The position numbers and the translations under genes were made by a program. The notes under the pieces were generated by a model. The model did no database searches and was not told the DNA's origin. It saw only the letters and a list, made by a program, of their open reading frames with translations. A DNA stretch of 10,236 bases from an uncultured Methanosarcinales archaeon (GTDB taxonomy: Archaea; Nanobdellota; Nanobdellia; Woesearchaeales; CAZYIM01): assembly GCA_964647565.1 (NCBI GenBank), contig CAZYIM010000058.1:1-10236 (forward strand). Direction: 5' to 3'. This document shows, piece by piece, positions 4,003 through 7,308 of the stretch (position 1 is the first letter of the stretch; each line of letters starts with the position of its first letter).

Positions 4003-5250
4003 GTGAAAAAAACCTATTCTAACGTACGGGGAACATCTGATTTTGATGCCGCTCAGAGCCTGCTCTTTCAAGATACACTTAAAAAATCAAGAGAAGTTTT
4101 TAAGCGATTTAATTATCAGGAGATTATTCTTCCCCTGCTGGAAGAAAGAGATTTGTTCGTAAAAGGGGTAGGGCAAAATACCGAGATCGTCGAGAAGCAA
4201 ATGTTTAAGATCGAGGGCAAAGATATAGTTTTACGGCCCGAAGGCACAGCCCAGGTAATCCGTTATTACCTCCAGAACGCGCTTTTTAAAAAAAGTGACT
4301 TTTCTAAGTTTTTCTATACCGGGGCGATGTTTAGAGGGGAACGCCCCCAAAAGGGAAGATTGCGTCAATTCCACCATATCGGCGCGGAAGCGATCGGCTC
4401 GGATAGTTACTACTTAGATGCGGAGATAATTGATTTGAGTTTAAAAATTCTAGATTCAGCCGGCATAAAAGAAAGGAGGCTGCTCTTAAACTCTTTAGGC
4501 TGCCAGGGAGATAAAGAAAAATTCGCCCTGATTCTAAAAGATGAACTTCCCCGGTACAAAGAACACCTTTGTGAAGATTGTCGCCGAAGATTAGGCAAGA
4601 ATCCTCTAAGAATTTTAGATTGCAAAAAACAAAGGTGCCGTCAAGCGCTTAAAGATTTTGTAGCTCAGACAGGAGGCCCGCATGCGCACCTGTGCTTAAG
4701 ATGTTTGGATAATTTTAAAAATTTAACGCTGCTGCTTGACGATTTACAGATAAAATATATTCTCGATTTTTCTCTTGTTCGCGGGCTTGACTATTATACT
4801 AATACTGTTTTTGAAATTACGTCTCCGAGATTAGGGGCTCAGGATGCTATCGGAGCCGGCGGAAGGTATAATAACCTGGTTAAATTGCTGGGCGGGCCGG
4901 ATACCCCGGCCGTAGGCTTTGCTTTAGGGGTAGAGAGGATGCTGCTGGTTTTAGGCCAAAGCGATTGCCAGCAGACAATAGATGTTTTTGTAGCCCTGAC
5001 CGGCAGCAGTCTGGCCAAAATTGGCTTTGACATTTTAAGTAATTTACGCCAAAATAACCTCACCGCTGACTATGATTATTGCGGTAAATCTTTGAAGGGT
5101 CAGTTACGAGCTGCCCAGAAGAAAAATGCCCGATATGTGGTAATCGTCGGTGATGAGGAGTGGAAAAATAATTGCGTGCTCCTTAAGGATATGGCCAAGG
5201 GCACCCAGGAAAAAGTAAAAATTAACGATTTGATCAACAAAATTATGTAG
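4003..5250 (+). CDS. hisS: Histidine--tRNA ligase
   Basis: 415 aa, GTG start. VRGTSDF, LRPEGTA, motif 2 FRGERPQKGRLRQF, HisA peptide RGLDYY, GGRYN, motif 3 GFALGVERM, and a C-terminal anticodon-binding domain. Confidence 0.98.
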   Translation: MKKTYSNVRGTSDFDAAQSLLFQDTLKKSREVFKRFNYQEIILPLLEERDLFVKGVGQNTEIVEKQMFKIEGKDIVLRPEGTAQVIRYYLQNALFKKSDFSKFFYTGAMFRGERPQKGRLRQFHHIGAEAIGSDSYYLDAEIIDLSLKILDSAGIKERRLLLNSLGCQGDKEKFALILKDELPRYKEHLCEDCRRRLGKNPLRILDCKKQRCRQALKDFVAQTGGPHAHLCLRCLDNFKNLTLLLDDLQIKYILDFSLVRGLDYYTNTVFEITSPRLGAQDAIGAGGRYNNLVKLLGGPDTPAVGFALGVERMLLVLGQSDCQQTIDVFVALTGSSLAKIGFDILSNLRQNNLTADYDYCGKSLKGQLRAAQKKNARYVVIVGDEEWKNNCVLLKDMAKGTQEKVKINDLINKIM

Positions 5251-5276
5251 GGGCCGCAGATCTGCGGCCCGATACA
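5246..5276. repeat. GTAG-type REP-like palindrome overlapping the hisS stop codon
   Basis: GTAG (5247-5250) is followed directly by the perfect palindrome GGGCCGCAGATCTGCGGCCC (5251-5270). The outer TGTA...TACA can also pair. Confidence 0.65.
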
Positions 5277-5283
5277 ATAAATT

Positions 5284-6690
5284 ATGCTACGCACCCATAC
5301 CTGCGGACAGTTAACCGAGGAAGATGTAAACAAGGAAGTGACTCTTTGCGGTTGGGTTGCTGCCCGCAGAGATCACGGTAAGCTTATTTTCATTGATATC
5401 CGGGATCGCTACGGGTTAACCCAGGTGGTATTTTTACCTAAACCCAATAAAGAGACTTACCAGCAGGCTAAGAAGTTAAGAAGCGAAGACGTGATTAAGG
5501 TTAAGGGAACGGTTAACCCCCGGCCCAAAAATACCGAAAATCCCAAACTTCCCACCGGTTTAATTGAAGTTTGTGCGGCCGAGCTGGATGTTTTAAGCCC
5601 CGCCCTGGATTTACCTTTTGTTATTGAAGACAATACTGATGCCAGCGAAGAAGTGAGGCTGCTTCACCGCTATCTGGATTTAAGAAGGCCCCAGATGGCT
5701 CAAAGAATAATTTTACGCCATAAGTTAAACCAGGAATTTCGCAATTTTCTTAATAACCGGGGTTTCATCGAGGTGGAAACCCCTTTTTTGACTAAATCTA
5801 CCCCGGAAGGGGCCCGGGATTATCTGGTTCCCTCCCGGCTTAACCCGGGTAAATTCTACGCCCTTCCCCAATCTCCGCAATTGTTTAAGCAGATTTTGAT
5901 GGCCAGCGGAATGGATAAGTATTATCAGATTGTGCGCTGTTTCCGGGATGAAGATTTAAGAAAAGACCGCCAGCCGGAATTCACCCAGCTGGATATGGAG
6001 TTTTCTTTTGTCAATGAGGAAGATATTCTTTCCTTAGTCGAGGAGATGATGGCCCGAATTTTTTCGGAGGGCCTGGGAGTAAAGATAAAGACACCTTTTT
6101 TAAGAATTTCCTATCCGGAGGCTATAAAAAAACACGGGAGCGATAAGCCGGATATCGGCGAACCTGCCTGCCGGCAGGCAGGGGCAGATTATCGTTTTCT
6201 TTGGGTAGTGGATTTTCCTTTATTCGAGCGCAACGATGAAGAAGGGCGCTGGCAGACCTGCCACCACCCTTTTACTTCTCCCCGGGATGAAGATGTAAAA
6301 TATTTGGATAAAGATTTATCTAAAGTAAGGGCACGTTCTTACGACCTGGTTTTAAACGGCGCCGAAATCGGGAGCGGCTCGATAAGAATACACTCTCCGG
6401 AATTACAACAGAAAATCTTTAACATTCTGGGGATTTCTCAGGAAGAAGCCGAGAGAAAGTTCGGGTTTCTGCTGCGGGCCTTCAACTACGGGGTTCCTCC
6501 CCACGGCGGAATTGCATTTGGCCTGGACCGGTTATATGCTATAATAACGGGGTCAGAAAGCATCCGGGATGTAATCGCTTTTCCCAAGACCCAGAAAGGG
6601 GTTTGTCCTTTGAGCGATGCCCCTTCGGAAGTTACCGAAAAGCAGTTAGAAGAGTTATCTATAAAGTCGATAGATGAAGAGGCAGGGTAA
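5284..6690 (+). CDS. aspS: Aspartate--tRNA ligase, bacterial type, short form lacking the GAD insertion domain
   Basis: 468 aa. RTHTCG, GWV..RRDHG, RYLDLRR, TPEGARDYLVP, LPQSPQLFKQ, CFRDEDLRKDRQPEFTQLD, HHPFT, GSIRIH, PPHGGIAFGLDR, IRDVIAFPKT. Follows hisS, a common gene order. Confidence 0.98.
   Translation: MLRTHTCGQLTEEDVNKEVTLCGWVAARRDHGKLIFIDIRDRYGLTQVVFLPKPNKETYQQAKKLRSEDVIKVKGTVNPRPKNTENPKLPTGLIEVCAAELDVLSPALDLPFVIEDNTDASEEVRLLHRYLDLRRPQMAQRIILRHKLNQEFRNFLNNRGFIEVETPFLTKSTPEGARDYLVPSRLNPGKFYALPQSPQLFKQILMASGMDKYYQIVRCFRDEDLRKDRQPEFTQLDMEFSFVNEEDILSLVEEMMARIFSEGLGVKIKTPFLRISYPEAIKKHGSDKPDIGEPACRQAGADYRFLWVVDFPLFERNDEEGRWQTCHHPFTSPRDEDVKYLDKDLSKVRARSYDLVLNGAEIGSGSIRIHSPELQQKIFNILGISQEEAERKFGFLLRAFNYGVPPHGGIAFGLDRLYAIITGSESIRDVIAFPKTQKGVCPLSDAPSEVTEKQLEELSIKSIDEEAG
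6163..6182. repeat. Perfect 20-bp intragenic palindrome, translated in frame in aspS
   Basis: CCTGCCTGCCGGCAGGCAGG equals its own reverse complement and encodes PACRQAG from codon 294. Confidence 0.85.
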
Positions 6691-6703: not shown

Positions 6704-7195
6704 ATGAGAAGGTTACTGGCATTGCTGGTCATTGTCTTTTTTGCCGGTTGTATGACCGTGAAGACTTATACTATTGAGAAGCCCCGAGTAGATACGGACA
6801 TCGAAGGAAATCGCGGGTATTTGGCCGGTGAGCCTGAGGAAGAAGCCGAGGAAAGTAGATTGGGCGATACCCGCAAGGTATCGGTTGTCGAGGTTGAGTT
6901 CGGTTCTCGTAAGCCGAAAGGCATAAGTATAGAAGATAAGGAAGAAACCTATCCGGAGACGGTGTTTGAAGAGGAGGCCCCGGTTAGAGAAGAGGAGATC
7001 GTATATACCACAGAAGAGGGATCTAAAGAGGAGTACAGTTACTACACCGTTAAGAATAACGATACCCTGCAGAAGATTTCTCATAAGTTTTACGGGACGA
7101 CCCGGAAATGGAAGTCGATTTATAAGGCCAACAAAAACGTGATCAAGAATCCGGATCGAGTTTATCCGGGTATTAAGCTAAGAATCCCTAAGTGA
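6704..7195 (+). CDS. LysM peptidoglycan-binding lipoprotein
   Basis: Start moved from the track's 6674 to ATG 6704, which has SD AGGAGGT at 6693-6699 and removes the aspS overlap. Signal peptide MRRLLALLVIVFFAG-C (lipobox), Glu-rich linker, and C-terminal LysM YTVKNNDTLQKISHKFYG...W..IY.AN...IKNPDRVYPGIKLRIP. 163 aa. Confidence 0.9.
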   Translation: MRRLLALLVIVFFAGCMTVKTYTIEKPRVDTDIEGNRGYLAGEPEEEAEESRLGDTRKVSVVEVEFGSRKPKGISIEDKEETYPETVFEEEAPVREEEIVYTTEEGSKEEYSYYTVKNNDTLQKISHKFYGTTRKWKSIYKANKNVIKNPDRVYPGIKLRIPK

Positions 7196-7248
7196 GGCTT
7201 AGCTTTTTTGAAGTCTGCCGAAGGCAGACGCACAAAAAAGCTGTAGCC
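7196..7248. repeat. Intergenic hairpin 1
   Basis: AGCTTTTTTG (7201-7210) and CAAAAAAGCT (7233-7242) enclose GTCTGCC-GAA-GGCAGAC (7213-7229). Outer GGCT/AGCC also pair. Confidence 0.8.
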
Positions 7249-7254
7249 GAACTT

Positions 7255-7308
7255 ACCCCCACACCAATTGGTTGACTTTCTTTAGTTACCTACAATTGGT
7301 GTGGGGGT
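7255..7308. repeat. Intergenic hairpin 2: perfect 16-bp inverted repeat with a 22-nt spacer
   Basis: ACCCCCACACCAATTG (7255-7270) and CAATTGGTGTGGGGGT (7293-7308). Confidence 0.9.

Follow-up and report, generated by a model that had tools for sequence, protein, structure and literature searches.

The aspartate-tRNA ligase gene (aspS) of the DNA studied here, a window of 10,236 nt from contig CAZYIM010000058.1 that comprises the whole stretch analyzed, carries within its coding sequence a perfect 20-bp palindrome, CCTGCCTGCCGGCAGGCAGG, to which we give the name PAL1. Our analysis indicates that the aspS palindrome is probably a solo copy of an insertion element that is 20 bp long, forms a hairpin and is dispersed, and we propose that GIY-YIG nucleases could mobilize it by nicking DNA in trans. 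The dispersed nature of the element is supported by exact copies at unrelated sites in many genomes, whereas we infer its mobilization from the repeated position of such copies just upstream of GIY-YIG genes.

The palindrome consists of two abutting 10-base arms with 100% complementarity, and 16 of its 20 bases (80%) are G or C compared to a GC content of 45% for the window. A first-pass annotation of this DNA had described a perfect, GC-rich palindrome in frame in aspS, which our measurements bear out, but it had placed the right-hand end one base too far, at 6183 instead of 6182. PAL1 starts at codon position 1 of the open reading frame (ORF) 5284-6690, is translated as P294-A-C-R-Q-A-G300 and is flanked in the protein by GSDKPD and FLWVVDFP; none of its three frames (PACRQAG, LPAGRQ and CLPAGR) contains a stop codon, as had also been claimed and as the sequence confirms. 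Even with 3 mismatches allowed, the window contains a single copy, and 200 shuffled versions contained none. Palindromes with arms of at least 10 bases occurred at 0.016 per shuffled window, with any at all in 15 of 1,000 dinucleotide-preserving shuffles; the window has two. As RNA, PAL1 is predicted to fold into an 8-bp stem with a 4-nt loop, at -13.9 kcal/mol alone and -18 kcal/mol with its flanks. So stable a stem, in a perfect copy, could have been retained in aspS for a function, for instance as a translation pause between domains, a protein-binding site or a regulatory RNA stem. We consider this very improbable: no aspS relative among those compared has PAL1, the palindrome lies inside an ORF and was not terminator-like in a scan of positions 5000-6400 for GC-rich stem-loops followed by a T run, it matched no Rfam family, and decayed copies elsewhere show no compensating changes.

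The host protein matches PF00152 at 4.9e-121 plus PF01336 and consists of an OB fold and the class II core (tRNA-synt_2) only. Alignment with the Thermus enzyme (PDB 1efw) pairs residues 1-291 with 1-293 and residues 302-460 with 417-575, and the bacterial insertion domain of about 123 residues is therefore replaced by ten residues, GEPACRQAGA. The linker is thus the stub where the GAD domain is missing, and it is a tolerant site for an insert. We compared this linker among relatives drawn from 8,000 scored sequences, of which the best 120 (450-495 residues, Omnitrophota where named) were kept and 119 could be compared for linker length; the nearest non-self relative listed has 76% identity. 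Between DKPD and the next F, 96 of the 119 have 7 residues, most commonly in the form xGEGDYR (GEGDYR in 33 of the 119), compared to 14 residues in the window protein. When the linker was masked and a FastTree phylogeny of the 120 sequences computed, the window protein was placed among the short-linker proteins P0012, P0034, P0053, P0011 and P0022. The short linker of these neighbors, together with the difference between 7 and 14 residues, argues that the insert is derived. An empty form of the site thus exists among the relatives, as the first-pass annotation had anticipated, and the insert adds seven residues, or 21 nt in total. That annotation had left the insert length at either 18 or 21 bp; the inserted unit is 20 bp, and the figure of 21 stands only as the net gain in aspS, reached through a further 1-nt change. 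Deleting 6163-6182 together with A6186 leaves GGC GAA GGC GAT TAT CGT, which encodes GEGDYR. Alternatively, a contiguous 21-nt insert made up of PAL1 and G6183 may have entered an ancestral GEADYRF.

Several further observations concern this stub and its relatives. The stub is a hotspot for indels, with 23 of the 119 relatives having a length other than 7, and a few carry longer stubs, such as LRNPNSTEKENEYK in P0008. None of the 120 listed relatives has a Pfam domain beyond the OB fold and tRNA-synt_2, and all are of the bacterial type without GAD. The relatives P0081 and P0097 have 7-residue inserts of their own (PTGQAGG and SAGQAGG) at the same codon as the window insert; their linkers read GAPTGQAGGQ and GASAGQAGGQ, and they lie in a distant clade with short-linker sequences around them. 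These inserts are probably an older, decayed and independent copy of the same palindrome in the same frame. The window protein itself is also known from two other contigs, with a different start call (P0002).

The variable length of the linker and the single copy in the window would be compatible with an isolated, local mutation in a linker that tolerates indels, for example by template switching or snap-back synthesis, with no repeat family involved. This explanation was rejected, and we assign it next to no probability, because the exact 20-mer was found at no fewer than 123 loci elsewhere. These came from scanning 596 Gb, with each species represented by one genome, for exact matches, and one contig was fetched twice; the resulting 122 loci (L numbers below) hold at least 131 distinct sites in about 120 genomes, with unrelated flanks. 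By chance, 0.03-0.5 copies would be expected over all 596 Gb at 40-50% GC. The earlier suggestion of a dispersed element is therefore upheld, and across genomes the 20-mer is anything but single copy. Contig titles were listed for 79 of the loci, and by the records' own taxon labels they comprise Patescibacteria/CPR (23), Bacteroidota (22), Gammaproteobacteria or Pseudomonadota (8), Planctomycetota/PVC (7), Omnitrophota (6), "delta", Thermodesulfobacteriota or Bdellovibrionales (6), Thermodesulfovibrio-type bacteria (2), Chloroflexi (1) and unclassified contigs (4); Rickettsia is not among these 79. Cultured carriers belong to Winogradskyella, Flagellimonas, Longitalea and Flavivirga, and include one complete Flagellimonas chromosome. 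GC content is below 50% in 61 of the 79 loci of at least 1 kb, and the median locus GC is 43%. Four loci (L014, L023, L029 and L036) have two PAL1 sites each, again with unrelated flanks. A longer shared element around PAL1 was considered and rejected, since the flanks are unrelated and separated left or right arms are only decayed copies. Plasmid records gave partial matches of 17-29 nt in 292 cases, mostly from high-GC taxa, with no full 20-mer among the 103 listed. The literature searched, which did not extend to subscription journals, yielded no description of the 20-mer, of the LPAGRQ or PACRQAG peptides or of the cassette architecture described below, and of 157 matches to GGCAGGCAGG or CCTGCCTGCCGG, the 25 listed dealt with methods and with eukaryotic or mammalian systems, none of their titles naming a prokaryotic repeat element.

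An identical short sequence in unrelated organisms resembles contamination, and most carriers are metagenome-assembled genomes (MAGs). We therefore considered that PAL1 could be an artifact of sequencing, assembly or databases, for example adaptor-like or synthetic sequence joined into contigs. This was rejected after the exact-match scan, and we find it scarcely credible. Large contigs of cultured isolates and the complete chromosome carry PAL1 (L009, L012, L066 and L067), contig names indicate several assemblers and read types, and no copy in a Pfam-supported gene disrupts the frame. Some copies are decayed or nested, PAL1 peptides occur in independently predicted proteins from other sources, and 2.3 Gb of phage records contained no full match and only 3 partial hits.

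Filled and empty sites can be compared in five cases, either inside a single record or with close homologues, and in each the insertion amounts to precisely 20 bp and has left no target duplication. In L037, L108 and L121, the palindrome is present in an upstream tRNA fragment and absent from the intact tRNA downstream, the difference being exactly 20 bases; L016 shows the same difference with a one-mismatch copy; and L061 without PAL1 reads AVMGRLVP-QDPNDPP, matching uninserted HsdS. Flank identity is 0-2 nt at 124 of the 131 sites, like that at random control positions, and the six sites with flank repeats of 5-8 nt all lie in tandem-repeat contexts. The control-like flank identity and the five comparisons led us to reject target-site duplication. 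There is no TA or other fixed target in the flanks of 129 sites, which show a bias only: A stands at -1 in 56 and T at +1 in 51, compared to T at -1 in 13 and A at +1 in 10, and the flanking pair is A..T in 36 and C..C or G..G in 35. At 14 of the 129 sites, the junction is no more than 6 nt away from a pre-existing stem of 6 bp or longer, compared to 2.1% of 10,960 control positions, and three nested copies (L018, L042 and L021) each sit one base off the center of another copy. An intact tRNA lies within 100 nt of 9 of the 131 sites and within 400 nt of 14, compared to 6.1% of controls, and other copies are located in tRNA fragments (L086, L100, L108 and L121). PAL1 favors the tips of hairpins, tRNA genes and their fragments, and the zone just upstream of GIY-YIG genes of about 80 residues. 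Near the exact copies are decayed ones, comprising 13 approximate matches and 9 left and 18 right extra arms, and mutated copies decay neutrally.

Other repeats were seen at or near these sites. PAL1 seems often to lie beside short tandem repeats with a period of 6-9 nt (e.g., L045, L059, L051, L102, L083, L025, L005 and L023). Two unrelated genomes (L053:7766 and L040:14091) share an identical 21-base variant, CCTGCCTGTCCGGTAGGCAGG, in which the stem is 7 bp and the loop 7 nt long, and this form would be frame-neutral by itself. A different GC-rich perfect palindrome, TCCGCCAGCTGGCGGA, with the core CCGCCAGCTGGCGG, was found in L011, L015, L016, L032, L040 and L113; its hosts are Patescibacteria and Gammaproteobacteria MAGs, and in L016 it shares a pseudo-tRNA with a PAL1 copy. 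Finally, CCCGATAGCTATCGGG recurs in three Bacteroidota loci (L053, L063 and L071).

Since PAL1 is free of stop codons, 59 sites are spanned by stop-free frames of at least 100 codons. We ran Pfam on 44 of these frames, the remainder being one duplicate and 14 frames among the shortest (102-133 aa), and 17 of the 44 contained a family at E <=1e-5; none contained a HUH domain. PAL1 lies well inside the protein in six of the 17, namely FtsK (L013), an NDP-sugar dehydratase (L021), S6 (L047), ScpB (L054), GatB (L106) and a PMT_2 glycosyltransferase (L072), the dehydratase copy being nested in an older decayed one. HsdS (L061) is a seventh, and in the remaining ten the copy lies at one extremity of the frame. 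If the window copy is counted, solid in-gene copies make up 8 of 132 sites and are read as LPAGRQ in six, PACRQAG in two and CLPAGR in none. No Pfam-supported gene among the frames examined is visibly broken by PAL1; in L065 and L069, where the frame is longer once PAL1 is removed, the site is at most 36 codons from the 5' end of the frame. Within genes, we saw only frame-preserving copies in variable regions, in agreement with the earlier proposal that such inserts survive in housekeeping genes at tolerant loops and add 6-7 residues, as the seven added to AspRS illustrate. GatB likewise has seven more residues than 3al0_B over the insert stretch, and no insert length could be read from the alignments of S6 and FtsK with PDB structures. 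Because 20 is not a multiple of 3, in-frame copies need a second change of 1 nt; in L061, this is one extra C 15 nt downstream, through which the native QDPND is read as KTPTT, and in aspS it is probably A6186.

A possible link to a mobilizing activity is the gene that adjoins some of the copies. Pfam identified a GIY-YIG domain (PF01541) just downstream of PAL1 in L061 and L121. A profile that we built from three GIY-YIG ORFs and ran over all frames of at least 45 aa in the 122 loci and the window detected 13 domains; they belong to 12 of the loci, and the window has none. With no mobilizer among the window's eight ORFs by Pfam either, the earlier statement that the window encodes none holds. 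The exact palindrome ends 29-60 nt upstream of a GIY-YIG ORF on the same strand in L061, L121, L037 and L108, and a degenerate one lies 44-45 nt upstream in L016 and L078; over the loci and protein searches together, the distance is 10-60 nt. Five of these six loci have one architecture, in which PAL1 cuts the 5' part of a tRNA, at a position that varies between cassettes, and an ORF of about 80 residues separates this part from a complete copy of that tRNA downstream. More widely, GIY-YIG ORFs were observed just upstream of intact tRNA genes in L037, L108, L121, L016, L078, L075, L039 and L029, and a second copy of the 5' part of that tRNA, about 20 to 60 nt long, stands ahead of the ORF; in the L029 and L039 cassettes, the tRNA fragment carries different GC hairpins. 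Truncated GIY-YIG ORFs lie near PAL1 in L010, L039 and L075.

The residues Y5, Y15, G17, R25, H29 and E61, which represent the GIY and YIG motifs and the Arg, His and Glu of the catalytic core, are invariant in eight of the ORFs, and matches to the UPF0213 structures 1ywl and 1zg2 are weak (E of about 6e-4). From the core residues kept and these weak PDB matches, the partner ORFs would belong to the Slx1/YhbQ (UPF0213) branch of the GIY-YIG superfamily. For six of them, NCBIfam gave only sub-threshold matches, in which the N-terminal part of a model for a group I intron endonuclease was hit, and Rfam at the gathering score found only tRNAs and one LOOT RNA in the window and seven loci. The LOOT RNA (L078:152-290) is in a Bdellovibrionales MAG and scores 52.9 bits against a gathering score of 46.4. 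An all-against-all BLAST of 1,125 ORFs of at least 90 aa, a cutoff for which the GIY-YIG ORFs are too short, revealed no cluster present in more than 6 of about 80 long loci. Protein searches showed the association as well. Among the 120 homologues listed for the L037 ORF, the named ones belong to Patescibacteria and Bacteroidota, in which PAL1 is also most frequent, and 7 of the 12 with at least 12 residues before the domain have the exact PAL1 peptide 4-10 residues upstream. When 1.84 billion representatives were searched with a profile, 34,733 matched at E <=0.001 and 11,003 at E <=1e-10; the best 150 include 100 domains with at least 12 upstream residues, 12 of which have the exact PAL1 peptide 3-22 residues upstream. 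Many of these 150 are 300-675 residues long, and the GIY-YIG domain is therefore embedded in other proteins too. The co-occurrence with GIY-YIG nucleases that the first-pass annotation had raised is thus found in the fetched loci and in two protein searches.

The HsdS relatives of L061 offer a view of such cassettes within a protein. Eight of them (P0122, P0125, P0134, P0174, P0181, P0202, P0206 and P0236) have an in-frame GIY-YIG domain in the central conserved region, and the cassette is cleanly missing at the same point in P0123, P0124, P0126, P0127 and P0129, which have only QDP[NK]DPP there. Judged on these alignments, the presence and absence of the ORF would fit the pattern that defines a homing endonuclease cassette. 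Ahead of the cassette, five of the eight have the exact PACRQAG, one has PVCRQAG, one has a duplicated altered form and one has none at the left end. The exact peptide stands right after GKLV and is fixed, while the next five residues vary (KTPTT, RISDT, KIPTS, QNPNS and KTPST), which hints at constraint or conversion. P0202 has an additional solo 7-residue insert, DLPAGRQG, about 120 residues downstream, P0236 has two decayed copies nearby, and P0134 has duplicated cassette ends.

We considered that solo copies could be remnants of whole GIY-YIG cassettes after deletion of the ORF, with PAL1 alone never moving. The palindrome's place 10-60 nt ahead of many of these ORFs, the three loci with truncated ORFs and the duplicated ends in P0134, as after an internal deletion, would all be expected under such a history. 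We nevertheless judge it improbable, for in L037, L108, L121 and L061, PAL1 lies within uninterrupted host sequence, apart from the cassette junction, and the solo copies in aspS, S6 and P0202 are accompanied by no other trace of a cassette. The aspS and P0202 proteins exceed their homologues by seven residues, the S6 frame has only the palindrome's residues, and PAL1-free cassettes are common.

Our preferred reading, that of a 20-bp element inserting as a unit, can be put in mechanistic terms. PAL1 would have landed in aspS between the codon for E293 and the next G of an ancestral GEGDYRF linker, and one extra base would have brought the insertion to 21 nt, with seven residues added and the enzyme left whole. 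GIY-YIG proteins could supply the nicking in trans. Slx1, a eukaryotic relative of these proteins, cuts branched and stem-loop DNA, and a comparable structure-specific cut at the junctions of single- and double-stranded DNA may free a 20-nt hairpin from an extruded cruciform. The same activity could open the targets, and host ligase or repair enzymes could seal the hairpin in. A free blunt hairpin might be sealed into any nick by two ligations, which would explain the exact unit and the lack of duplication. Nuclease genes and palindrome could then spread together by horizontal transfer. A bolder version of this proposal is that PAL1 is the smallest mobile DNA yet, a hairpin cut and pasted by nucleases of about 80 residues together with host ligase, forming a two-part selfish system that is spread over at least seven named bacterial groups and continues to lengthen the surface loops of essential proteins by a fixed peptide of seven residues. 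We offer this version tentatively and hold it to be possible but doubtful.

Several points weigh against mobilization of PAL1 by these nucleases or against its being mobile at all. The PAL1 peptide is missing at 88 of the 100 GIY-YIG domains with upstream sequence, and most copies have no nuclease gene alongside, only 4 exact ones of 131 and 2 degenerate ones having such a neighbor. Cassettes free of PAL1 exist, the commonest upstream motif being DLPAPRPG (26 of 115). Because PAL1 is an insertion into host sequence outside the cassette, the adjacency could reflect a shared target preference for tRNA-like DNA. GIY-YIG enzymes are hydrolytic nucleases, and no joining of DNA is known for them. 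The identity of the 20-mer across phyla, without any coding capacity, is hard to explain, and an essential gene needs a second and nearly simultaneous change, since 20 is not a multiple of 3. The window has one copy and no GIY-YIG gene, and its flanks are not among the PAL1 loci listed. No filled/empty polymorphism was seen between close strains, and movement is thus deduced from distribution. The scan recorded exact matches only, and MAG labels may be wrong in places.

These points leave some room for a different origin, in which PAL1 copies are repair scars, formed where breaks that GIY-YIG or other structure-specific nucleases had made at hairpin-prone DNA were patched by short templated synthesis from an existing copy, as filler DNA. 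Such scars would lack target duplications and could have an exact 20-bp unit, they would be enriched at hairpin tips and inside other PAL1 copies, and they would cluster beside nuclease genes; the extra base near the insert in both aspS and L061 is what error-prone repair could leave. However, templated filler usually copies nearby sequence and varies in length, whereas PAL1 is the same 20 bases with sharp ends at 131 sites or more, with no homology visible between flanks and donor. We therefore regard repair scars as unlikely, and the insertion of a discrete element remains the explanation that we favor.

The coordinates of the features discussed are collected below. By Pfam, the genes of the window are dnaE, an HU-family gene, hisS, aspS, a gene for a LysM protein, phoH, a gene for a 7TM-HD protein and ybeY, and the window has no tRNA gene.

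Coordinates of the palindrome, its host gene and associated features in the window
Feature	Start	End	Strand	Description
aspS	5284	6690	+	Aspartate--tRNA ligase, 468 aa, bacterial type without GAD domain; host gene of the insert
AspRS linker I291-R304	6154	6195	+	Stands in place of the bacterial insertion (GAD) domain; received the insert
PAL1	6163	6182	.	Probable solo copy of a dispersed repeat; AspRS residues 294-300, PACRQAG
A6186	6186	6186	+	Candidate compensating +1 base restoring the aspS frame after the 20-bp insertion

The second palindrome of the window, GGGCCGCAGATCTGCGGCCC, is also perfect, 20 bp long and 80% GC. It occupies 5251-5270, directly 3' of the hisS stop codon and 13 nt ahead of the aspS start, and its predicted fold has an energy of -16.1 kcal/mol (z -4.8). 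Having no T run, it is not terminator-like, and it is likewise unlisted in the 5000-6400 terminator scan. It was absent from the 1.2 Mb of fetched loci, and the peptides of GGGCCGCAGATCTGCGGCCC and TCCGCCAGCTGGCGGA were not found upstream of the 115 GIY-YIG domains. GGGCCGCAGATCTGCGGCCC may be another member of PAL1's class of GC hairpins. In the intergenic region between the LysM gene and phoH, an inverted repeat at 7255-7308 has perfect 16-nt arms (ACCCCCACACCAATTG and CAATTGGTGTGGGGGT) around a 22-nt spacer, and more small inverted repeats lie at 7175-7242.

Short palindromic repeats are known from single lineages, as with the REP and RPE sequences considered below, and from organelles. An identical 20-mer shared by Patescibacteria, Bacteroidota, Omnitrophota, Planctomycetota and others points to a very simple and widely portable mechanism of insertion. 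The tiny GIY-YIG nucleases provide a testable partner for a class of repeats whose mobilizer has never been clear, mitochondrial GC clusters included. PAL1 would also account for odd 7-residue loops (LPAGRQ, PACRQAG) and for gene calls over-extended at the N-terminus in MAG proteomes, and where a disrupted tRNA fragment lies next to an intact tRNA, it would point to a selfish cassette as the source. As a natural marker, it could help to trace recent horizontal exchange between uncultured phyla, and its carriers among cultured Flavobacteriia open it to experiment.

Among known systems, Rickettsia palindromic elements (RPEs) are about 100-150 bp long, are found only in Rickettsia, and lie in frame in housekeeping genes, where they add a peptide at the protein surface. 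PAL1 resembles them in its in-frame copies in the genes for AspRS, FtsK, S6, GatB, ScpB and the dehydratase, but it is only 20 bp long and is spread across phyla. Repetitive extragenic palindromes (REPs) and REPINs are imperfect palindromes with a conserved 5' tetranucleotide that are extragenic, species specific and of high copy number and have RAYT, an enzyme of the HUH (Y1) type, as their partner. They share with PAL1 the combination of a short palindromic repeat and a single nuclease-type gene with copies of the repeat beside it. In contrast, PAL1 is a perfect palindrome with variable flanks that enters genes, is identical across phyla and adjoins GIY-YIG genes. The hallmark of miniature inverted-repeat transposable elements, terminal inverted repeats with a target duplication of fixed length, is not seen in PAL1. 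The IS200/IS605 elements and their ORF-less derivatives depend on hairpins and cause no target duplication; they require a pair of different subterminal hairpins, a fixed tetra- or pentanucleotide as target and a HUH transposase. PAL1, which is also without duplication, has a single symmetric hairpin and only a weak flank bias.

On the nuclease side, prokaryotic Slx1-like GIY-YIG proteins have been described, one of them recently inserted into HsdR, and the classical GIY-YIG homing enzymes carry DNA-binding domains (PMC1564403). The passages of that paper drawn on here contain no mention of palindromes and no link to tRNA genes (PMC1564403). The ORFs beside PAL1 are like homing cassettes in being in frame in eight HsdS proteins and missing from close homologues. 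Compared to the homing enzymes with DNA-binding domains described in those passages, they are bare nuclease domains of about 80 residues, and PAL1 itself encodes nothing.

The closest analogues of PAL1, by resemblance, appear to be the GC clusters of yeast mitochondria. According to the passages of PMC8811140 used here, these clusters are palindromic, occur in frame in var1, are regarded as transposable and are bypassed in translation in one yeast; their sequence varies, and AG/TAG terminal repeats are read as target duplications. A title cited in PMC8811140 reports GC-rich palindromes flanking tRNA genes in Neurospora mitochondria. As far as those passages describe them, the clusters and PAL1 are alike in being short GC-rich palindromes of AT-rich genomes that are mostly intergenic, sometimes in frame and found near tRNA genes. 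By the same account, the clusters are organellar and variable and have terminal repeats, whereas PAL1 is an invariant 20-mer that lies without duplication in the bacterial chromosomes of several phyla. No nuclease partner of the clusters is named in these passages of PMC8811140, whereas PAL1 adjoins GIY-YIG genes.

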